A stretch of 40,179 bases of DNA, taken from the IMG/VR virus record IMGVR_UViG_3300028792_000002, positions 1-40,179 of that record; one strand, written 5' to 3'. Of the stretch, positions 479-37,876 are shown piece after piece (positions within the stretch are counted from its first letter, which is position 1; the number at the start of each line of letters is the position of its first letter). A program made the translations under genes and the position numbers. The stretch comes from a virus. The notes beneath the pieces are model-generated. The model saw only the letters and a program-made list of their open reading frames with translations, had not been told where the DNA came from and ran no database searches.

Positions 479-705
479 GCTGGTTGACGTTCGTCGAGGT
501 CCACGACACCGGCAAGACGAAGGTGTGGGACGTCCGGAACGCCGAGAACGGGTCGCTGCTCGGCCAGGTCCGCTGGCACGGGGCGTGGCGGCAGTACGTC
601 TACTCGACCGCGGCCGACGTCGTGTGGAACCCGGCGTGCCTCGACGAACTCGCTGCGTTCATCCGCGACCAGATGGCCGCGAGGCGTTCCCGTGCCGCTG
701 TCTGA
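475..705 (+). CDS. Hypothetical protein, 76 aa
   Basis: GTG start overlaps the terS stop (GTGA). Codon third positions are GC-rich. No motif recognised. Confidence 0.5.
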   Translation: MSWLTFVEVHDTGKTKVWDVRNAENGSLLGQVRWHGAWRQYVYSTAADVVWNPACLDELAAFIRDQMAARRSRAAV

Positions 706-1987
706 CAAGCAGGCCGACTCCCTCATCGAAGCCCTCGACGGTGACGACGCGATCCTGGTGTGGGAGGGCGCGGTCCGATCCGGAAAGACCATGAGCTCGA
801 TCCTCGCCTGGTGCGAGTACGTAAGGACGAAAGCCCCCCCGGGTCCGTTGCTGATGGTCGGCAAGACGAAAGACACGCTGCAGCGGAACGTGCTCGACGA
901 GATCGACGCCTACTTCGGCGACGCGTCACCGTTGCAGCACACGGCCGGCGCGAACGTCGGCACCCTGTTCGGTCGCAAGGTCCACATGGTCGGCGCGAAC
1001 GACGCCAAGGCAGAGTCCCGCATCCGTGGCCTCACGTTGGCCGGCGCCTACGTCGACGAGGGGACACTGCTGCCCAACGAGTCGTTCTGGTCCATGCTCC
1101 TCACCCGCCACGCCACCACGTTCTCCCGTGGGGCGAAGATCTTCGTCACCACCAACCCCGACTCCCCGGTGCACTGGTTCAAGAAGAAGGTCATCGACCG
1201 GGCGACGGAGATCCGGGCGCGGGTGTGGTCGTTCGTCCTGGACGACAACCCGATCCTTGACGAGGACGCGAAGGAGCAGCTGAAACGCAGCCTGTTCGGG
1301 TTGTTCTTCAAGCGGTTCATCCTCGGCCTGTGGGTGGCGGCTGAGGGCGCCATCTACGACATGCTCGACCTCGACGACGGCGGGAAACACCGCGTCACCT
1401 GGGACCAGGTGCCGATGCTCACCCGGTTCTGGCTCGGGGTCGACTACGGCGACCTGAACCCGTTCCACGCCGTCCTGTTGGCGTTGGGTGTGGATCAGCG
1501 GCTGTATGTGGTCGGGGAATGGCGGTACGACGGCCGCGCTAGGCAGAAGCAGATGGAACAGACCGAATACGAGGCCGCGCTCCGGGAGTGGCTGACGGGG
1601 CACGCCGGCATCCCCATCGAGGACATCCAGGTCGCCGGGGACACGTGGCCCGAACGCACCGCCGTCGACCCCTCTGCGGCCGGGTTCCGCAACGTGCTCG
1701 CCAACCGTGGCTGGACCGGCCTCACCGGCTCGGACGAGAAGATCAACGCCGTCCGGGACGGGATCCGCAACGTCGCCTCCCTGCTGGGTCGCGGCCGGTT
1801 GCGGTTCGTGAAGGACGCAGCCCCCGAGCTCGAACGGGAACTGCTGGGCTACGTGTGGGACGAGAAAGCGTCAGCGAAGGGTGAGGACACGCCGGTGAAG
1901 GTGGACGACCACGGCGCGGACGCCCTCCGCTACGTGGTGGCGGCGTGTCGTCTGGTGTGGCGGCCGTGGTTGGGTGAGGTGGGCTGA
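692..1987 (+). CDS. terL: Terminase large subunit
   Basis: 431 aa. Walker A-like GAVRSGKT, Walker B-like AYVDEG, C-terminal nuclease-type DDHGADALRY. Position upstream of the portal gene. Confidence 0.9.
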   Translation: MPLSDKQADSLIEALDGDDAILVWEGAVRSGKTMSSILAWCEYVRTKAPPGPLLMVGKTKDTLQRNVLDEIDAYFGDASPLQHTAGANVGTLFGRKVHMVGANDAKAESRIRGLTLAGAYVDEGTLLPNESFWSMLLTRHATTFSRGAKIFVTTNPDSPVHWFKKKVIDRATEIRARVWSFVLDDNPILDEDAKEQLKRSLFGLFFKRFILGLWVAAEGAIYDMLDLDDGGKHRVTWDQVPMLTRFWLGVDYGDLNPFHAVLLALGVDQRLYVVGEWRYDGRARQKQMEQTEYEAALREWLTGHAGIPIEDIQVAGDTWPERTAVDPSAAGFRNVLANRGWTGLTGSDEKINAVRDGIRNVASLLGRGRLRFVKDAAPELERELLGYVWDEKASAKGEDTPVKVDDHGADALRYVVAACRLVWRPWLGEVG

Positions 1988-2894: not shown

Positions 2895-3068
2895 ATGTAC
2901 GACGTGATCGTCCTCGCCCCCGGCGGCGGCTGGACCACCGACACCACCGGCCCCCTCACCCGCTGCCGCCAACGCGTCCGCGACCTCGCCCAGTCGAACC
3001 GCGGCCGCCGACAGATCACCCGCATCACCCACCGACCCACCGGCCACACCGTCGACAAGGACACCTGA
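2895..3068 (+). CDS. Hypothetical protein, 57 aa
   Basis: ATG at 2895. Stop overlaps the portal start (TGATG). Confidence 0.45.
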   Translation: MYDVIVLAPGGGWTTDTTGPLTRCRQRVRDLAQSNRGRRQITRITHRPTGHTVDKDT

Positions 3069-4636
3069 TGCCGCTCCCGCTCGACAACGCCGGGTTCTGG
3101 CCCCCCCTCGACATCCGCCCCTACATCGACCAGGCCGAAGCCGCTGCCGCCTGGTGGTCCGGTGACCGCGACGACCTCGCCGCCACGTCCCACAGCACCG
3201 GCACCGGTGCGTCACGACGGAAGTTCTGGCAGCGCCGGAAGACCGGCGACGCCACCACCACCACCCACCACGTCCACGCACCCCTCGCCGGCGACATCGC
3301 TGCTGTGAGTGCGGAGCTGCTGTACGGCGACTTCCCCAACCTCGTCACCGACGACACGGCCGCCCAGGCCCAGCTCGAAGAGACCGTCGAGACGATCGGC
3401 CTGCAGAACCTGATGCTCGAAGCCGCTGAGGTCGCCGCCGCCACGGGTGGCGTGTACCTGCGGCAGACGTGGGACACCCGGGTCGCTGACCATCCGCTGA
3501 TGCAGTCGTTCCCGCAGACGAACGCCGTCCCCGACTTCCGCTACGGCCGCCTGTTCGGCGTCAGCATGTGGGAGGAGGTCGACCGGGTCGGCGGCACCAT
3601 CTGGCGACACCTCGAACGCCACGAGCCCGGCCGAGTCCTCCACGGCCTCTACGTCGGCTCCGAGGTCAACCTCGGCACCAGCATCCCGCTGACCGAGCTG
3701 CCGGCGACGGCCGATTACCAGCCCGAGGTGCTCCTCCCCGGCCGGCTCCGGGACCGGATGCTCGTCCAGTACGTCCCCAACGCCCTCCCCAACCGGAAGC
3801 TGAAGTCCCGGCCGTTGGGTCGGGCGGACTGGGTGGGCTGTGAGGACTTCCTCGACGCGCTCGACGAGACGTGGACGTCGCTGATGCGGGACATCCGCAT
3901 CGGCCAGGCCCGCATCCTGCTCCCTGAGGAGTGGGTCACCAAGGGCGGCCGACCGGGCACCCAGTCCACGTTCGACGTCGACGACGAAGCGTTCATCAAG
4001 CTCCACGTCGCCCAGTCGGAGCAGCAGAAGCTGGAGACGTTCCAGCCGGACCTCCGGATCGATCAGCACCTTGCCGGCACCGTCGCGTTGATGGAACGCA
4101 TCGTCAGTGCGTGCGGGTACTCCCCCCAGACGTTCGGCATGGACATCAAGGGCTCCGCCCACTCCGGCACCGCCCTGCGGATCCGCGAAGGCAAGACGAA
4201 GAACACGATGGTGAAGAAGCAGGGCTACCACACCCCCGGCCTGCAGCAGGCCGTCGTCAACCTCCTCGACATCGGCTACGAAGTGTGGGGCACCCCCACC
4301 ATCGCCGACCCGAAGAAGAACCCGGCGAAGGTCGGGTGGGCGGCGATCTCGATGGACCCGGCGGAGAACGCCACCATGATCCAGACGCTCCGCACAGCGG
4401 AAGCCATCAGCATCCGGACGGCGGTGAAGATGGCGCAGCCGGACCTCGACGAGGACGACGTCGACGAGGAGGTCGCGTTGATCCAGTCGGAGACGGCGAT
4501 GGCGTCCCCGACCGACCCGTTCCACCCGGCCACCCCGGGCATGGAGCCGCCCGTGGCACCGATCGACGAGGCCCCGCCGCACGACCCCGCCACCGCCACC
4601 GACCTGACCCCTGACGACCAGCCTGCCGTGCCCTGA
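3068..4636 (+). CDS. Portal protein
   Basis: 522 aa. Lies between the terminase and the MuF-like gene. Acidic, Pro-rich C-terminal tail typical of portals. Confidence 0.85.
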   Translation: MPLPLDNAGFWPPLDIRPYIDQAEAAAAWWSGDRDDLAATSHSTGTGASRRKFWQRRKTGDATTTTHHVHAPLAGDIAAVSAELLYGDFPNLVTDDTAAQAQLEETVETIGLQNLMLEAAEVAAATGGVYLRQTWDTRVADHPLMQSFPQTNAVPDFRYGRLFGVSMWEEVDRVGGTIWRHLERHEPGRVLHGLYVGSEVNLGTSIPLTELPATADYQPEVLLPGRLRDRMLVQYVPNALPNRKLKSRPLGRADWVGCEDFLDALDETWTSLMRDIRIGQARILLPEEWVTKGGRPGTQSTFDVDDEAFIKLHVAQSEQQKLETFQPDLRIDQHLAGTVALMERIVSACGYSPQTFGMDIKGSAHSGTALRIREGKTKNTMVKKQGYHTPGLQQAVVNLLDIGYEVWGTPTIADPKKNPAKVGWAAISMDPAENATMIQTLRTAEAISIRTAVKMAQPDLDEDDVDEEVALIQSETAMASPTDPFHPATPGMEPPVAPIDEAPPHDPATATDLTPDDQPAVP

Positions 4637-4638
4637 CG

Positions 4639-5700
4639 ATGACCCCCGAGCAGGCGCTGAACCTCGCCAAGACCGTCGCCGACCTGTACGCCGAAGCCAC
4701 CGCCCGCATCCTCACCCTCATCGCCGCCACCGCAGCGAAGGGGATGGAGTCGCCTGCGTGGCAGCAGGAACGCCTCGCCGAACTCGTGATCCTCCGCCGC
4801 AACACGGCCCGGATCGTCGCCGCGATGCAGCAGCACGGCACCAGCCAGGTGCTGACCGCGCTCGAGGAGGCCTACCGTGGTGGCCGGCTCACCCCAGCCC
4901 TCACCCGCCCCGGCATGGTCGCCGTACCCCAACGAGCAGTGGTCACGTTGGCGGCGGACACCACCCGGGTCCTCGACTCCACGGGCCCGCGGGTGCTCCG
5001 CTGGGCTGAGGACGTGTACCGGCAGGTGATCGCCGAGGCCGTCGGCCCCACCATCGTCGGCGTCGAAACCAGGCGTGAAGCTGCTGCCCGGGCGATGGAC
5101 CGGTTCGCTGCCCGGGGCGTCACCGGGTTCACCGACAGCGCGGGCCGGAACTGGGCCCTCGACACCTATGCGGAGATGGCCACCAGGACCGCAGCCGGCA
5201 CCGCCTACCGGGTGGGGAAGGTCGACCGGTTCCGCGAATCCGGCGTCTCCCTCGTCGTCGTGTCGGACTCCCCGGAGGAGTGCGAGGTGTGCCGCCCCTG
5301 GGAAGGCATGGTGCTCTCCCTGGACGGTGGGGAACCGACCGCGGCCGAGTTGGGCGGCGCCGAGTTCGGCGGCACCGTCGCTGACGCTGAAGCGGCCGGG
5401 ATCGGGCACCCGAACTGCACCCACACCTACGAAGCGTTCACCCCCGGGTTGACGGACACCCCGACGCCGGAGGCGAACCCGGACGGCTACCAGGCGCGGC
5501 AACGGCAGCGGGAGCTCGAACGGCGGGTGCGGGAGTCGAAGCGGCGGGTCGCCGCCCTGAAGCCGCTCGGGAAGACACCGCAGTTGGCGCGGGCGCAGCA
5601 GCTGCTCGGCGCCCGCCGTACCGCGCTGCTCGAGCACAACACGGCGTTCGACCGGAAGCAGCACGTGTCCGACCGACGGGTCCAGTTGACCCACCGCTGA
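4639..5700 (+). CDS. MuF-like / SPP1 gp7-like minor capsid (head morphogenesis) protein
   Basis: 353 aa directly after the portal gene. GIGHPNCTHTY motif (Mu F-type HPNC) and a basic coiled C-terminus. Confidence 0.85.
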   Translation: MTPEQALNLAKTVADLYAEATARILTLIAATAAKGMESPAWQQERLAELVILRRNTARIVAAMQQHGTSQVLTALEEAYRGGRLTPALTRPGMVAVPQRAVVTLAADTTRVLDSTGPRVLRWAEDVYRQVIAEAVGPTIVGVETRREAAARAMDRFAARGVTGFTDSAGRNWALDTYAEMATRTAAGTAYRVGKVDRFRESGVSLVVVSDSPEECEVCRPWEGMVLSLDGGEPTAAELGGAEFGGTVADAEAAGIGHPNCTHTYEAFTPGLTDTPTPEANPDGYQARQRQRELERRVRESKRRVAALKPLGKTPQLARAQQLLGARRTALLEHNTAFDRKQHVSDRRVQLTHR

Positions 5701-5705
5701 CCGGT

Positions 5706-5981
5706 GTGGCGGCTGACACTCCGGCCCGGACCGTGGGCGTCATGCAACGGACTTGGCTGCCCACAGCCCTCACCTGTCCCGCCTGCGGCCACGGATGGCA
5801 CCCCACCGGCACCTGCCCCGACTACATCGCCGCCGGTGGCGTCGCGACAGCGTGCGCCTGCCGATCCACCGAACGGAGCGGAACCTTGCGTCGAGCCGAA
5901 CCCCGGGCCTGCTGCAACACCACAGTCGCCGACCACCACCGGAACGACTGCCACCAGGTCACGGCCCGGGTGCCACGATGA
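5706..5981 (+). CDS. Cysteine-rich small protein (alternative start ATG 5742)
   Basis: CPACGHGWHPTGTCPDY plus further Cys/His (ACAC, ACC, NDCH). Stop overlaps the next ATG (ATGA). Confidence 0.45.
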   Translation: MAADTPARTVGVMQRTWLPTALTCPACGHGWHPTGTCPDYIAAGGVATACACRSTERSGTLRRAEPRACCNTTVADHHRNDCHQVTARVPR

Positions 5982-6247
5982 GCCTCGACATCCTCGCAGC
6001 ACTCGAAGCCACCCCCGCGCGGGGCGCAGGACGCTGCGGGATCGCCACCTTCCTCAACGGCATCCCGGCGGAGACGCCCGGCCGGGACGAACTCGTCCGC
6101 CTCGTCGAAACCCCCCACGACCGCGGCGGCCGCGCCGACACCAGGTCCGGGCAGTCCATGGCCGTCGTACTCACCCAGCTCGGCTACGAGACGACCCAGA
6201 ACCCGATCCTGGACCACCGGAACAAGGCCTGTCGGTGCTACCGGTGA
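5978..6247 (+). CDS. Hypothetical protein, 89 aa
   Basis: ATG 5978 is coupled to the upstream stop. Its own stop overlaps the GTG of the next gene (GTGA). Confidence 0.5.
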   Translation: MSLDILAALEATPARGAGRCGIATFLNGIPAETPGRDELVRLVETPHDRGGRADTRSGQSMAVVLTQLGYETTQNPILDHRNKACRCYR

Positions 6248-7470
6248 CCCTCGACATCACCGGTGCGCTCGCAGCCACCCGCCACGTCGGCACCATCGAA
6301 CACGAGCAGGCCGCCCAGGCTGGCACCATCCAGGTCGGGTCCGACGGCGGCGAGTTCAAGGACGTCACCGTCGACTCGGAGATCCTCGACAACGACTGGT
6401 CCCGGATCTTCCGGATCTTCAAGCTCAACCCCGACGAGTTCGAGGTGGTCGACGACACCGTCAAGATCACCACCTGGCAGCAGTCCAAGCGTCTCGAGAA
6501 CGGCGATCGGGACACCGTCCAACTCTGGTCGTACTCGGGGCGGTTCACGCGCCGTACCAAGGACCGGATCTCGCCGGCCGTGGTGGCCGAGTGGCGGACC
6601 GCGCTACGGGTGAAGTCCCGGGCGAAGAAGCCCGACCCGGTCACCGGGGGTGGCACCTACCCGATCTTGATCGCCGACCCGCAGCTGGGGAAGAAGGGCA
6701 CCGAGGAGGCTGTCGAGAACTACAAGCGGGGCGTCTCTGCCCACATCGCGGCGGCCCGCTCGCTGGCCGATGAGGTGGCTGGCGTGCACGTCGCATGGAT
6801 GGGCGACGAGACCGAGAACGTCGTCAACTCCTACGGCAACCAGCCGCACACCATCGAGCTCAACCGGTCCGAGCAGCTCGCCCTCGACTACGACCTGCGC
6901 GTGTGGGCGCTCCGCGAAGCACTGTCGCTCGGGAAGCCGACATCGGCGTCGTCGGTGATCTCCAACCACGGCGAGTGGACTCGCAACGGCGGCAAGGACC
7001 CGGTCACCAGCCAGGGCGACAACGCGTCCACGTTCATCGCCCGTCAGGTCAAGTCCCTGTTCGATGAGCTCGCACCGTTCACCGGGCAGACCGTCGAGTG
7101 GCACATCGGCGGGGGCGACCCCGGCGTCACGATCAACCTGTCCGGGGTGGAGTGCTACTTCTCCCACGGCTACATCGAGAAGGGCAAGGGCGGCTCCACC
7201 GAGATCCGAACCCGGGCCGCGATCGAACGGCAGATCCTCGGCAAGACTGACCAGCTCGGTGCGACGGCGCTGTGGTTCATGGCGCACTACCACCACTTCT
7301 ACAGCCAGGAGTTCGAGGGCCGGACCCTGTTCGGGTGCCCAGCGATCGAGGCGGAGCGGTCGTCGGAGTACATGCTGAACCAGTTCGGGGTGTGGTCGCC
7401 GCCGGGCGTGCTGGGGATGCTGGTCGGCGAGCACCACTCGCGTGGCTGGTCGAACCTGAACGTGTTCTGA
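6244..7470 (+). CDS. Calcineurin-like metallophosphoesterase-family protein, 408 aa
   Basis: Ordered motif series LIADPQLG / WMGDETEN / SNHGEW / FSHGY / AHYHHF, resembling metallophosphoesterase motifs I-V. The upstream part of track ORF 5704..7470 is rejected as non-coding. Confidence 0.7.
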   Translation: MTLDITGALAATRHVGTIEHEQAAQAGTIQVGSDGGEFKDVTVDSEILDNDWSRIFRIFKLNPDEFEVVDDTVKITTWQQSKRLENGDRDTVQLWSYSGRFTRRTKDRISPAVVAEWRTALRVKSRAKKPDPVTGGGTYPILIADPQLGKKGTEEAVENYKRGVSAHIAAARSLADEVAGVHVAWMGDETENVVNSYGNQPHTIELNRSEQLALDYDLRVWALREALSLGKPTSASSVISNHGEWTRNGGKDPVTSQGDNASTFIARQVKSLFDELAPFTGQTVEWHIGGGDPGVTINLSGVECYFSHGYIEKGKGGSTEIRTRAAIERQILGKTDQLGATALWFMAHYHHFYSQEFEGRTLFGCPAIEAERSSEYMLNQFGVWSPPGVLGMLVGEHHSRGWSNLNVF

Positions 7471-7502
7471 CCCGCTGACACCGGCCGCCGCAACCTGCTG
7501 CC

Positions 7503-8258
7503 ATGACTCAGCCCACGGAGTACGCCACCTTCGGCGCCCCCATCACGCCCGACACCATCGGCGACCTCATCGCCTTCCACCGCGCCACCTTCGGCGGCTA
7601 CCGCATGGAGGGCGAGACCACGTCGACCGACACCGGTACGGCGACCACAGACAGCGGTGGCACCAGCACGGGAGCCACAACCACCACGACGAGCGACTCC
7701 ACGTCGACCGGTGCCACCGCCGAGGAGAAGAAGCTCGACCTCACCCAGGCCGGGCTGGACCGCATCATCGCGGAGCGGCTCGCCAAGGAGCGGAAGATGT
7801 TCGAGCAGCAGCTCGCCGAGGTCCAGGCGACCGCGGGGAAGACCGAGCTCGAAGCCGCACAGATCAAGGCCCAGCAGGCCGAGGAGCGCGTCGGGTCCGT
7901 CACGAAGGAGTCCGCGCAGCGCGTCGCCGGCGCCGAGGCCAAGCTGGCCGCCCACCTCGCGGGTGCGAAGAAGGACCGTCTCGAAGCCGTCCTGAAGCAG
8001 GCCGACCTCACCGACGCGGTTGCTGCTGACGGCACCGTGGACTCGGCGAAGGTGCAGACCGCGATCGACAAGGTGCTCGCCGACTACCCGGAGTGGAAGG
8101 GCACCACCATCACGACGCCGGGTGGTGAGCTGAAGCAGGGCGAGACGGGGAAGCGGGTGTGGTCGCGGTCGGAGATCGCGGCCCTGTCGGCGGCGGACCG
8201 GAAGGCGCACCTGGCGGACATCAACGCGGCGGCGGCCGAGGGCCGCATCAAGGACTGA
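7503..8258 (+). CDS. Scaffolding protein
   Basis: 251 aa, rich in Ala/Glu/Lys/Gln with helical character and a Thr/Ser/Gly-rich N-terminal linker. Position upstream of the major capsid gene. Confidence 0.75.
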   Translation: MTQPTEYATFGAPITPDTIGDLIAFHRATFGGYRMEGETTSTDTGTATTDSGGTSTGATTTTTSDSTSTGATAEEKKLDLTQAGLDRIIAERLAKERKMFEQQLAEVQATAGKTELEAAQIKAQQAEERVGSVTKESAQRVAGAEAKLAAHLAGAKKDRLEAVLKQADLTDAVAADGTVDSAKVQTAIDKVLADYPEWKGTTITTPGGELKQGETGKRVWSRSEIAALSAADRKAHLADINAAAAEGRIKD

Positions 8259-8260
8259 CG

Positions 8261-8410
8261 GTGCGCGACGACGTCGCCCGCTTCCACGGGACCACCATCG
8301 CCGAGCCCGAGGCCGGTCACCTGACCGTCCTCGAGGCCTCGTGCGACCCGGCCGCGCACCGTACGACGACCGACGGCTTCTGCTGCGGCGTCTGCAAGGC
8401 GTCGGTCTGA
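8261..8410 (+). CDS. Small Cys-containing protein, 49 aa
   Basis: GTG 8261 lies just after the scaffold stop. C-terminal CCGVC. Stop overlaps the next ATG. Confidence 0.4.
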   Translation: MRDDVARFHGTTIAEPEAGHLTVLEASCDPAAHRTTTDGFCCGVCKASV

Positions 8411-8679
8411 TGTCCGGCGCTCACCGGCGGGTCCTCACCCTCGAGGAGGAGTACCCCGAGGTCGACGTCGAGTCGTTCCACTGCCGCCACTGCGGAGCAC
8501 CGCGGCGGATGCGCGGCAAGACCAACGTCCCCGGGAAGCGGGTCATGGTGTGCGACACCTGCGACCCCGACGTGACGGTGCCGCTCCCGGGGCGGCACTG
8601 CACGGCCTGTGAGACGTACGAGCCGGACCCCACCCGGGCCATCTGCCTGGTGTGTGAGAGGCCACTCCCGACCGGCTGA
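8410..8679 (+). CDS. Zinc-ribbon protein, 89 aa
   Basis: Four CxxC pairs (CRHC, CDTC, CTAC, CLVC). ATG is coupled to the upstream stop. Confidence 0.5.
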   Translation: MSGAHRRVLTLEEEYPEVDVESFHCRHCGAPRRMRGKTNVPGKRVMVCDTCDPDVTVPLPGRHCTACETYEPDPTRAICLVCERPLPTG

Positions 8680-8737
8680 CACCGCACACCTCAACGTAGT
8701 CCTCGACCGGGTCAGCCGTCGAAAGCGCCGGTCCCCT

Positions 8738-8808
8738 ATCGCGGGTTCTGGGAACAGGTCGGCCTCCAAATCCGACCACGCGAGGTTCGACTCCTCGACG
8801 CGGTGCCA
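8738..8808 (+). tRNA. tRNA-Trp(CCA)-like element with truncated D-arm (non-canonical tRNA or tRNA 3'-half relic)
   Basis: Perfect T-arm CGAGG-TTCGACT-CCTCG (8781-8797). Anticodon loop CUCCAAA (8764-8770). 5-nt variable loop. Acceptor pairs 8738-8743 with 8799-8804, including A1-U72, followed by G73 and an encoded CCA (8806-8808). The D-arm is only CTG-GGAA-CAG. Mismatches at C31.U39 and G7.A66. Confidence 0.45.
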
Positions 8809-8948
8809 GCTCTACCCGTGGAGCCAAACACGGGGGCCGCAACGCGGCAGGGGATGAACCCCGCCCACCACCCAGGGCGGGCGCCGACGGGCGTCACACG
8901 GCAAGCACCACCCCCACCCGTCCGTACGTCCCCCAAGGAACCCCAGCG

Positions 8949-9797
8949 ATGACGCTCAACAACTTCATCCCCCAGGTCTGGTCCGCCAACCTGCTCCAGA
9001 ACATCGACGAGGCGCACGTCTACGCCCAGGACTCCGTGGTCAACCGCGACTACGAGGGCGAGATCAAGGGCGCCGGCGACACGGTGAAGATCAACTCGAT
9101 CGGTCGCGTCACCATCAGCGACTACACCAAGAACGTCGACCACGCGGGCCCCGAGACCCTCACCGACAGCCAGAAGACGCTGCTCATCGACCAGCAGAAG
9201 ATGTTCAACTTCCAGGTCGACGACATCGACAAGGCCCAGCAGACCCCGAAGGTCATGGCCGAGGCGATGCGTGAGTCGGCCTACGGTCTGGCGCGCGTCA
9301 CCGACCTGTTCCTCGGCGGCTTCCACACCGGAGCCGCCGCCGGCAACCTGATCGCCAACGACACGACCCCCCTGTCGGTCACCACGGCAGCTGCGGCCTA
9401 CGAGAACCTCGTCGACCTCGGCACCCTCCTCGACCAGCAGAACGCCCCCGCGGAGGGCCGCTCCGTGCGGATCCCGCCGTGGTTCTACGCGCTGCTGCTC
9501 AAGGACGACCGGTTCGTCCGCAACGGCGTCTCCACCGACGTCCTGCACAACGCCCAGGTCGGCGAGGCGGCCGGCTTCACCGTCATGAAGTCGAACAACG
9601 TCCCCGCCACCACCGGCGCGAAGTACAAGATCCAGGCGTCGGTCCGTCAGGCGATCTCGTTCGCCGAGCAGATCGTCTCCGTCGAGGGCTACCGGCCCGA
9701 GAAGCGGTTCGGTGACGCCGTCAAGGGTCTGCACGTGTACGGCGGCAAGCTGATCCGTCCGGAGTTCCTCGCGGTCCTCACCGCGAACCGCACCTGA
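8949..9797 (+). CDS. Major capsid protein
   Basis: 282 aa, preceded by AAGGAA RBS. Lies after the scaffold gene and is followed by a strong hairpin. Confidence 0.85.
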   Translation: MTLNNFIPQVWSANLLQNIDEAHVYAQDSVVNRDYEGEIKGAGDTVKINSIGRVTISDYTKNVDHAGPETLTDSQKTLLIDQQKMFNFQVDDIDKAQQTPKVMAEAMRESAYGLARVTDLFLGGFHTGAAAGNLIANDTTPLSVTTAAAAYENLVDLGTLLDQQNAPAEGRSVRIPPWFYALLLKDDRFVRNGVSTDVLHNAQVGEAAGFTVMKSNNVPATTGAKYKIQASVRQAISFAEQIVSVEGYRPEKRFGDAVKGLHVYGGKLIRPEFLAVLTANRT

Positions 9798-37158: not shown

Positions 37159-37433
37159 CCCGGAACCCGGATGTGGCGTTCGCTGAGGCGATCGCGGAGC
37201 TGGCGAGGCGGCTGCAGGGCTGGGGTGTGGCGGAGCCGCAGCGTGAGGCGCAGGACTTCGTGCAGGGGATGGTGCATCAGGGGTGGCGGCCGAACGGGAT
37301 GCGGCTCGAGCAGCCCCCGGCCGTGGACCCCAGGTACGACCGGAAGCCGGATGAGGTGCCGGAGTACCTCGCCGCGAAGGCCGCTCTCCGCGGCGTGCGG
37401 CCGGCCGAGGAGGACCCGGTGGGGTCCCGGTGA
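37155..37433 (+). CDS. Hypothetical protein, 92 aa
   Basis: GTGA coupled on both sides. Confidence 0.5.
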   Translation: MTRNPDVAFAEAIAELARRLQGWGVAEPQREAQDFVQGMVHQGWRPNGMRLEQPPAVDPRYDRKPDEVPEYLAAKAALRGVRPAEEDPVGSR

Positions 37434-37876
37434 AGCGCACCACGCTCTCGCGTCGTACGCCGATGCGCCGGCAGGCACTCAAGTCCACCGGCCGCACCCG
37501 CCCGAAGCCGCGCCGCCAGCCCGCCCCCGACCGGGAGTTCTGGCAGCAGCAGCGGGAGGCCCTGTACGCCCGCGCCCGCGGCCGGTGCGAGCACTGCGGG
37601 ACCAGCCTCGACGACTCGGGGATGGAAGCACACCACCGGAAGCTGCGGTCGGCGGGCGGCGGCCACGGCCTCGAGAACCTCGCCGCGCTCTGCCCCACGT
37701 CGCACAAGTACATGCACGAGCACCCGGCACACGCCCGGATGCTCGGGTTCATCGTCTCGGCCTACGGCGACCCATCCCAGCGGGTCGTCACTCTCCACGA
37801 CCGCAGCACCGTCCGGCTCACCGCCGACGGCAGCTACGACGTCATCTTCGACAGCAACGGAAGGCCAGCAGCATGA
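37430..37876 (+). CDS. HNH endonuclease
   Basis: CEHCG...EAHHRKLRSAGG...NLAALCPTSHKYMH (HNH core flanked by Cys pairs). Confidence 0.8.
   Translation: MKRTTLSRRTPMRRQALKSTGRTRPKPRRQPAPDREFWQQQREALYARARGRCEHCGTSLDDSGMEAHHRKLRSAGGGHGLENLAALCPTSHKYMHEHPAHARMLGFIVSAYGDPSQRVVTLHDRSTVRLTADGSYDVIFDSNGRPAA

Follow-up and report, generated by a model that had tools for sequence, protein, structure and literature searches.

A small-partner and metallophosphoesterase gene pair, probably a DNA exonuclease cassette, within the head gene block of a temperate phage genome

Introduction

Why does a gene for a metallophosphoesterase lie among the head genes of a phage? The question is raised by IMGVR_UViG_3300028792_000002, a complete viral genome of 40,179 bp with direct terminal repeats and about 70% G+C, which is referred to here, over its full length, as the window. 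It is the genome of a temperate siphovirus-type phage. Between its genes for a MuF-like minor capsid protein and a scaffolding protein lie three open reading frames (ORFs), a Cys-rich ORF, an ORF of 89 amino acids (aa), termed orf89, and an ORF encoding a 408-aa protein. An earlier annotation made from the letters and ORFs alone, which we call the sequence-only reading, had described these three ORFs, their stop/start coupling and the ordered motifs DPQ / GDETE / NHGE / HG / HYHH in the 408-aa protein, and we could confirm each of these from the sequence.

Our analysis indicates that the segment 5978-7470 is, on balance, probably a self-contained two-gene cassette, widespread in actinobacterial phages, that encodes a late-expressed two-part DNA exonuclease. 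The evidence lies in the fold class and invariant active-site residues of the enzyme, in a partner that is conserved, fused to the enzyme or swapped between enzymes, in the variable genomic position of the pair and in its co-varying N-termini. In the mechanism that we propose, the 408-aa enzyme would be a binuclear-metal phosphodiesterase of the Mre11/SbcD/PolD-DP1 fold class, most likely a DNA exonuclease and possibly an endonuclease too, and orf89 would be a small helix-turn-helix (HTH)-type protein, probably zinc-stabilised, serving as its DNA-binding or regulatory subunit. A peptide shared by the two would dock them to each other or to one common partner. The cassette, together with an orphan stretch of about 280 bp, would have been inserted between the MuF and scaffold genes and would thus be read with the late head operon. 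Its product would be an enzyme of DNA metabolism that is made late, with the processing of replicated or recombining phage DNA, or the breakdown of other DNA, as plausible tasks, and would not be a component of the capsid.

Results and Discussion

The 408-aa enzyme

All five metallophosphoesterase motifs occur in order in the 408-aa protein, and in its AlphaFold2 model (predicted local distance difference test, pLDDT, 77.5; predicted template modelling score, pTM, 0.65) each stands at or just after a predicted beta-strand, as metallophosphoesterases show. Conservation of the motifs was counted over 119 diverse full-length representatives of the family, reaching down to about 25% identity (Table 1). 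Residues D145, Q147, D188, E191, N241, H242, H308, H348 and H350 were each kept in 117-119 of the 119, which places the motif series far beyond chance. The Gln that replaces the canonical His of motif I is as constant as the rest (118/119) and is thus a fixed signature of the family and not a sign of decay, while the invariance of the catalytic residues points to an active site under strong selection. Judged from these residues, the protein looks like an active enzyme.

The 408-aa protein matched the family phrog_284, labelled "exonuclease", at 4.7e-30, with residues 42-398 aligned to profile positions 31-384 of 398, and the family profile in turn matched Adephagia gp35 (hhalign, 100%, 6e-41, 357 columns). 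Foldseek searches with the AlphaFold2 model returned PolD DP1 (2.5e-7), Mre11, GpdQ, polymerase B-subunits, LpxH and Rv0805, with probability 1.0, and the best structure matches in BFVD were labelled metallophosphatase or "DNA polymerase II small subunit". Relatives of the protein reach the Pfam phosphoesterase families weakly: of 83, 31 matched Metallophos_2 (best 4.6e-4) and 17 matched Metallophos (best 4.1e-5). A profile built from these 83 diverse relatives matched Vps29 at 3.9e-4 across motifs IV-V. Neither a prohead protease nor a capsid decoration protein appeared among the Pfam and PHROG matches or the top 50 of each structure search, in agreement with the suggestion of the sequence-only reading that the protein is not structural. 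The fold match of the model and the HMM matches at family level support the assignment of the 408-aa protein as a calcineurin-like metallophosphoesterase, neither structural protein nor protease.

The N-terminal part of the enzyme, about 130 residues that the sequence-only reading had left unassigned, is conserved across the family and could not be placed by us either: modelled alone (pLDDT 75), this domain had no fold match in the PDB (best E 0.039). Long alignments to DP1 had prompted an oligonucleotide/oligosaccharide-binding (OB) fold as a candidate for it, and this candidate was dropped, as the domain alone matches nothing in the PDB. The first 24 residues, ahead of the beta-rich domain, are disordered in the AlphaFold model.

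An exhaustive search for relatives of the enzyme yielded 495 clusters at 50% identity. Members of the window's own subfamily (59-79% identity), found in Nocardia and Rhodococcus prophages and in metagenomes, carry only the label 'hypothetical protein'. The family includes TM4 gp36, Adephagia gp35 and the "MRE11" genes of Streptomyces phages, and the window enzyme is only about 25-33% identical to annotated phage members. Genome contigs searched with a profile of close relatives gave 9 loci. The enzyme at locus L036 (loci are given by our own numbers where they have to be told apart) belongs to the other main branch and matched 867 phage records, among them TM4 gp36, cluster K mycobacteriophages, phages of Cutibacterium acnes and some of Bacillus and Lactobacillus; many of the 337 Mycobacterium records matched by the enzyme are of cluster K. 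No functional data on these genes were found in the papers on TM4 and Streptomyces phages. By sequence, the window enzyme is assigned as a divergent member of a known actinophage family, itself called exonuclease by annotation, in an unusual position.

In some relatives, for example in Nocardia ignorata, the enzyme gene is split by an intein (L022 8849-10726, L045 3849-5726 and L023; proteins P0048 and P0130). The intein starts with CVGADE, contains a LAGLIDADG-like block, GLFDGEG, and ends with SHN. It sits in the conserved loop Y197-G-N-Q200, 6-7 residues downstream of motif II, and such a site marks a conserved gene that is hard to lose.

The small partner

In nearly every locus that we fetched, an ORF of 60-95 aa stands directly upstream of the enzyme gene, usually overlapping its start. 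Such pairs include TM4 gp35/36, Janus gp43/44, Footloose gp64/65, PAD20 gp28/27 and about 25 metagenomic or prophage loci, as well as Adephagia gp34/35, in which gp34 is a homologue of the partner (97.7%, 1.5e-12). The small ORFs align with orf89 along a common pattern, MSLAxxL ... C ... (W/L)L..L..D ... helical segment ... T(I/F)xxHRRxxCxC. A putative zinc site of orf89 is formed by C20...H-x4-C-x-C, and it is suggested by the behaviour of the single Cys and the CxC, which tend to come and go together across partners. A profile search recovered relatives of orf89 in metagenomes at 60-74% identity, though a tblastn search of orf89 against phage genomes was empty. With G+C at third codon positions (GC3) of 0.89 for orf89 and 0.93 for the 408-aa gene, both have the values of real genes in this genome. 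We conclude from these comparisons, which are of sequence, that orf89 is a conserved partner of the enzyme.

In many relatives the partner is fused onto the N-terminus of the enzyme. The profile of the free-standing partners matched that of the fused N-terminal extensions (hhalign, 95.9%, 5e-9), and one fusion, P0127, retains the C...HRRGECEC pattern. The fused extensions and several free partners gave weak matches to many HTH families of Pfam. Strict adjacency is not obligatory: in L031 (4103-6391), where the enzyme is 78% identical to that of the window, two genes, one YunG-like and one a 158-aa ORF, separate partner from enzyme. In some prophages the fusion adjoins an integrase gene, a large serine recombinase in L016 (1-3843) or a tyrosine integrase in L013 (L011/L013, 5586-8974 in L013), an arrangement that recalls the unrelated phosphoesterase of Bxb1, an excision directionality factor.

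The two small ORFs to which the sequence-only reading had drawn attention are therefore unequal, since orf89 is a conserved functional partner and the Cys-rich ORF an orphan of doubtful reality. The latter has a GC3 of 0.79 and a G+C at second codon positions of 0.70, where neighbouring genes have about 0.9 and 0.5. It has no homologues among 5.8 billion proteins, no tblastn match at E<=1 in 50,697 phage genomes and no match in Pfam, PHROG, NCBIfam or PADLOC. On these statistics its coding status is doubtful, and it may merely carry ribosomes to orf89.

A shared N-terminal peptide

The longest repeat in the region 5400-7800 is a direct repeat of 39 nt, whose two copies, 79% identical, lie at the starts of orf89 and of the enzyme gene and encode similar N-terminal peptides (Table 1). 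The shared peptide is about 7-12 residues long and occurs in lineage-specific variants common to both genes of a genome. It reads SLAATL in partner and enzyme of L006, SIAADL in both proteins of L018, GKLAELLK in both of L020 and SLADRL in both of TM4, and takes slightly different forms in the partner and enzyme of L029 (ALVDR and TLVDR) and of Adephagia (SLAERL and SLSDRL). In Fruitloop, where the enzyme is of the DnaQ type, the partner has SLLADL and the enzyme SLTSDL.

Co-variation was examined by comparing all candidate enzyme starts with all starts of 55-130-aa ORFs within 1.6 kb upstream. The mean similarity score of the starts was 18.3 within loci vs 9.9 between loci; none of 20,000 permutations matched what was observed, and in most loci the adjacent partner was the best start match. 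A DNA-level operator or gene conversion had been considered as a source of the shared N-termini and was dropped, as the differences between copies fall mostly at third codon positions (76, vs 43 and 44) and the DNA upstream of the copies is not alike; both features point to constraint on the peptide. Six-frame scans of seven loci revealed the peptide motif in no other ORF. L036 pairs a partner 74% identical to orf89 with an enzyme only 27% identical to that of the window, and this enzyme still starts with a partner-like peptide (MTLDILAALEATP / MNISEALQATP), which indicates that the tag travels with the partner. We infer that the shared peptide serves as a docking tag, either mutual or directed to one common partner or site.

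Exchange with DnaQ-like exonucleases

The same partner family also precedes enzymes of an unrelated fold. In L049 (4820-5296) the gene after a partner 70% identical to orf89 encodes a DnaQ-like DEDD exonuclease instead of a phosphoesterase. Fruitloop gp33 and Gaia gp128 matched the partner profile (hhalign, 90.6% and 96.5%), and both are upstream of DnaQ-like genes (L050 2260-3301, where the small gene overlaps the DnaQ-like gene, and L051 2302-3331, respectively). A homologue of Fruitloop gp33 is present in 349 cluster F records and adjoins a DnaQ-like gene in almost all of those listed; Girr gp36 is 87% identical to it. These cassettes of clusters F and X (Fruitloop gp33-gp34, Girr gp36-gp37, Gaia gp128-gp129) resemble that of the window in having the same small partner family upstream and, in Fruitloop and in the L049 pair, a shared N-terminal peptide (MSLLADL / MSLTSDL for gp33/gp34), but they differ in their catalytic subunit, which is of the unrelated DEDD fold (phrog_403). 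The Fruitloop cassette occupies the slot that the cluster K enzyme has, after the lysis cassette, and the DnaQ-like enzyme appears to be a non-orthologous replacement of the phosphoesterase.

No other indirect evidence in this analysis speaks as strongly for the phosphoesterase being a DNA exonuclease as this swap of exonuclease folds under one partner. DNA as substrate and exonuclease polarity are inferred for the window enzyme. The swap also bears on the proposal that the enzyme is a phosphodiesterase that destroys the nucleotide second messengers of CBASS, Thoeris, Pycsar or type III CRISPR. The fold class does include cyclic-nucleotide phosphodiesterases, and Rv0805 and GpdQ were among the structural matches. 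Yet the obligate HTH-type partner and the DnaQ-like replacement in the same cassette point to DNA, the nearest structural neighbours are DNA nucleases, and the 408-aa protein had no match in PADLOC or NCBIfam, so that we hold this role to be extremely unlikely. Of the two enzyme activities that the sequence-only reading had put forward, the nuclease has thus gained from the exonuclease annotation, the HTH-type partner and the DnaQ pairing, while degradation of cyclic nucleotides is unsupported.

The exchange suggests a more general arrangement, in which a family of HTH/zinc proteins of about 80 aa would act as adaptor, recruiting either a metallophosphoesterase or a DnaQ-like enzyme through the shared, co-evolving N-terminal peptide. 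We offer this as a tentative possibility. If it is true, a previously undescribed docking tag permits unrelated nucleases to be swapped under one adaptor. No description of the partner, of the exchange between two exonuclease folds or of the co-varying tag was found in the papers searched.

Comparison with known phosphoesterases

With the actinophage MRE11-like exonuclease family (PHROG 284) the window enzyme shares homology over its full length, the motif series DxQ / GDxxE / NH / H / HxH and the N-terminal domain, and members of this family have, as in the window, an upstream small partner with a matching N-terminus. Elsewhere these members are found after the lysis cassette or among replication genes, whereas the window enzyme is inside a block of head genes. 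The core fold is common to the window enzyme and Mre11/SbcD, including T4 gp47 (Foldseek about 1e-6 over about 305 columns), with motifs II-V conserved. Mre11/SbcD, however, has DxH in motif I and a C-terminal capping domain, while the window enzyme has DxQ and its extra domain is N-terminal. Mre11/SbcD works with the Rad50/SbcC ATPase and the window enzyme's partner is an HTH-type protein of about 80 aa; no Rad50/SbcC ATPase gene was adjacent in the window or in the loci with gene tables that we examined, and downstream neighbours vary.

The best structural matches of the window enzyme were the archaeal PolD small subunit DP1, a 3'-5' proofreading exonuclease, and eukaryotic polymerase B-subunits (2.5e-7, up to 436 columns). 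In DP1, as in the window enzyme, an extra domain is N-terminal to the phosphoesterase core, and phage relatives of the window enzyme bear the automatic label 'DNA polymerase II small subunit'. They differ in that the N-terminal domain of DP1 is an OB fold and that of the window enzyme, taken alone, has neither an OB-fold nor another PDB match; TM-scores were 0.37-0.41. Neither a DP2-like polymerase nor a phage DNA polymerase was found among the window genes scanned, which did not include every ORF.

To our knowledge, the only actinophage phosphoesterases with experimental data are Bxb1 gp47 and A10ZJ24 gp48, both of cluster A. They too are calcineurin-like and resemble Mre11 and DP1, with weak measured nuclease or phosphodiesterase activity, and are known as excision directionality factor, as needed for phage DNA replication and as damaging host DNA (PMC11795197, PMC12287305). 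They differ from the window enzyme in their size of about 255 aa, in having no N-terminal domain, in their canonical motifs and early expression, and no small tagged partner has been described for them. Membership of the two in the window family was rejected, as hhalign gave 7.7% with 37 columns around motifs IV-V only.

These proteins nevertheless suggest another role, that of a host-directed nuclease for takeover or counter-defence, degrading bacterial or competing phage DNA. In M. tuberculosis, phage replication requires the metallophosphoesterase A10ZJ24 gp48, which disrupts the genomic DNA of the host (PMC12287305) and silences defence genes. Overexpression of cluster K homologues annotated as MRE11 or exonuclease, namely Adephagia gp35, Hammy gp34 and Amelie gp31, is strongly toxic (PMC10700055, PMC11797047, PMC11373665), which places them with the most toxic of phage proteins. 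Of these three, Adephagia gp35 was checked by profile for membership in the family, and the other two are assigned by annotation only. Adephagia gp35 is among the four most toxic proteins of its phage, while its partner gp34 is not toxic (PMC11373665); in Girr it is the partner, gp36, that is severely toxic to M. smegmatis, with gp37 moderately so (PMC11075535). In L029 (1-1528 with 6744-8215) a YqaJ-RecT recombination pair co-exists with the partner-phosphoesterase cassette, so that the cassette does not merely supply the exonuclease of a RecT-type system there. But toxicity on overexpression is expected of any nuclease, gp48 and Bxb1 gp47 are of a different family and expressed early, and the cassette is in late operons of the window, the Nocardia prophages and Adephagia. 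A nuclease aimed at the host is thus an unlikely explanation, and we keep to that of a late enzyme of DNA metabolism.

Genomic placement and timing

The position of the cassette varies. In seven Nocardia prophages, with head genes 30-43% identical to those of the window, it is flanked by TerL and portal; a site after the lysis cassette is seen in several prophages and in mycobacteriophages of clusters K and F; in Janus, Footloose, L003, L028, L029, L031 and L036 it is found among genes of replication and nucleotide metabolism, and in L048 just ahead of terminase. The three closest relatives of the enzyme (75-79% identity) are in DNA- and nucleotide-metabolism regions of phages with unrelated head modules. 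An unrelated head module is that of L028, with an HK97-type capsid and an S78 protease.

The nearest relative of the window's head module is L033 (41-45%), in which the MuF gene is directly followed by a scaffold-like gene and the coat gene. No exact empty site was found in the viral collection, which holds only L033 as a relative of the head module. Given the contiguity of MuF and scaffold in L033 and the varying site of the cassette, the likeliest reading of 5701-7502 is that of a segment inserted into the late operon, with the orphan stretch 5701-5977 (about 280 bp) as its left edge. Target-site-like repeats flanking the insertion were not found, the internal 39-nt repeat being the only one. 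Between 4500 and 9000 the gene strand has no predicted promoter-like or terminator-like site, and a single terminator-like site on the minus strand is no more than in shuffled sequence. RNA-seq of Adephagia has shown a late transcript that covers the genes for virion and lysis proteins, with its end after gene 35 (PMC11373665), the homologue of the enzyme gene. Late expression, which the sequence-only reading had considered, is plausible for the cassette of the window phage from its position and by analogy to this transcript.

The variable site raises the possibility of a selfish mobile nuclease cassette, in which an HTH targeting subunit and a nuclease would spread like free-standing homing endonucleases. 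Identity of the enzyme stays at 60-79% between phages with TerL, portal and MuF proteins that are only 30-43% identical or of other families, and the site is often wedged between essential genes (TerL|portal, MuF|scaffold). The family, however, is old and diverse with invariant catalytic residues, hosts inteins of its own and keeps a fixed syntenic slot in whole clusters (the 349 cluster F records for the DnaQ-type pair, and many of cluster K); together with the lack of flanking target-site repeats, this makes selfish spread very improbable in our view.

Packaging into the virion had also been raised in the sequence-only reading, which pointed to the ejected effector domains often joined to MuF-type proteins. 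The enzyme would then be ejected with the DNA, and the shared peptide would target both proteins to the capsid, loading them into proheads beside MuF and portal. Within the phage group of the window the cassette is always in the packaging and head block (MuF|scaffold in the window, TerL|portal in the seven Nocardia prophages), and an N-terminal tag on two proteins is formally like the capsid-targeting sequence of T4. The same cassette with the same tag behaviour is, however, found with unrelated head modules or away from head genes (L028, L029, L031, L036, Janus, Footloose), and the scans of seven loci revealed the tag on no other ORF. The location of the closest relatives in unrelated phages speaks against the link to MuF. 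Nothing indicates a packaged enzyme, which we regard as very doubtful, and a two-part DNA exonuclease, made late, is the better account of the cassette.

Assessment and significance

Several points weigh against this account. The "exonuclease" label of the family is an annotation and not a measurement, and from a metallophosphoesterase fold by itself one cannot tell whether the substrate is DNA, a nucleotide or another phosphoester. The phosphoesterase fold proposed in the sequence-only reading was recovered in the structure searches, but TM-scores against solved structures were low, about 0.3-0.4, and the 408-aa protein itself had no match in Pfam (E<=1), NCBIfam or PDB sequences. We know of no characterised nuclease with this fold that has a Gln in motif I, so that the metal used or the chemistry may be different. 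Assignment of orf89 to the HTH type comes from weak matches in its relatives, as orf89 itself matched no HTH family of Pfam, and the permutation result overstates independence because the loci are related to one another.

The analysis gives a precise DxQ signature to a common actinophage family that is routinely labelled "MRE11 exonuclease", with 867 records matched by one relative, and identifies as obligate a partner that current annotations call "hypothetical protein". That this partner is shared with DnaQ-like exonucleases speaks for a role as exonuclease and hints at the way in which catalytic modules are exchanged between phages. The pair is carried by the tractable phages TM4, Adephagia, Fruitloop and Girr, in which the docking tag and the role of the enzyme are directly testable. 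The locus also illustrates that a gene within a head operon need not be a head component.

Genome setting and features

The coordinates of the features are collected in Table 1. The stop codon of the Cys-rich ORF overlaps the start of orf89 in an ATGA (5978-5981), and that of orf89 overlaps the start of the 408-aa gene in a GTGA (6244-7). Between portal and coat, Pfam and PHROG searches revealed no prohead protease, as the sequence-only reading had noted for this module. Megablast of the window region 5000-9000 against phage genomes matched nothing.

Table 1. Features of the head gene block, the two-gene cassette and the 408-aa enzyme in the window. Fractions give conservation among the family representatives; residue numbers are those of the enzyme.
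Feature	Position	Strand	Details
TerL	692-1987		
Portal, SPP1-type	3068-4636		
MuF-like minor capsid protein	4639-5700	+	PF06152 5.3e-57; phrog_581 4.9e-78
Cys-rich ORF	5706-5981	+	91 aa from GTG; 79 aa from ATG 5742
Repeat copy 1 (family D1)	5976-6014	+	encodes orf89 N-terminal peptide MSLDILAALEAT
orf89	5978-6247	+	89 aa
Repeat copy 2 (family D1)	6242-6280	+	encodes enzyme N-terminal peptide VTLDITGALAAT
408-aa metallophosphoesterase gene	6244-7470	+	actinophage 'MRE11-like exonuclease' family
N-terminal beta-rich domain, about residues 24-130, family-specific	6313-6633	+	W78 in 109/119
Motif I, D145-P-Q147 (Gln replaces canonical His)	6676-6684	+	D, Q each 118/119
Motif II, G187-D-E-T-E191	6802-6816	+	D188 118/119; E191 117/119
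Motif III, N241-H-G-E244	6964-6975	+	N, H each 119/119
Motif IV, H308-G309	7165-7170	+	H308 119/119
Motif V, H348-Y-H350-H351	7285-7296	+	H348, H350 each 118/119
Head scaffolding protein	7503-8258	+	phrog_2303 3.5e-12
Coat, P22/Phage_capsid_4-type	8949-9797		

Between scaffold and coat, an ORF of 112 aa (8341-8679, plus strand) with four CxxC pairs (CRHC, CDTC, CTAC, CLVC) has a GC3 of 0.88, the level of real genes, and no PHROG match; it is a second small, zinc-ribbon-like insertion within the head block. Elsewhere the window encodes a tyrosine integrase, a repressor, a Sak4-like ATPase, a C5 methyltransferase, an HNH endonuclease and a WhiB protein. The HNH endonuclease gene (37430-37876, plus strand) shortly precedes a small-terminase-like gene that spans the record ends, an order typical for HNH-assisted cos packaging.

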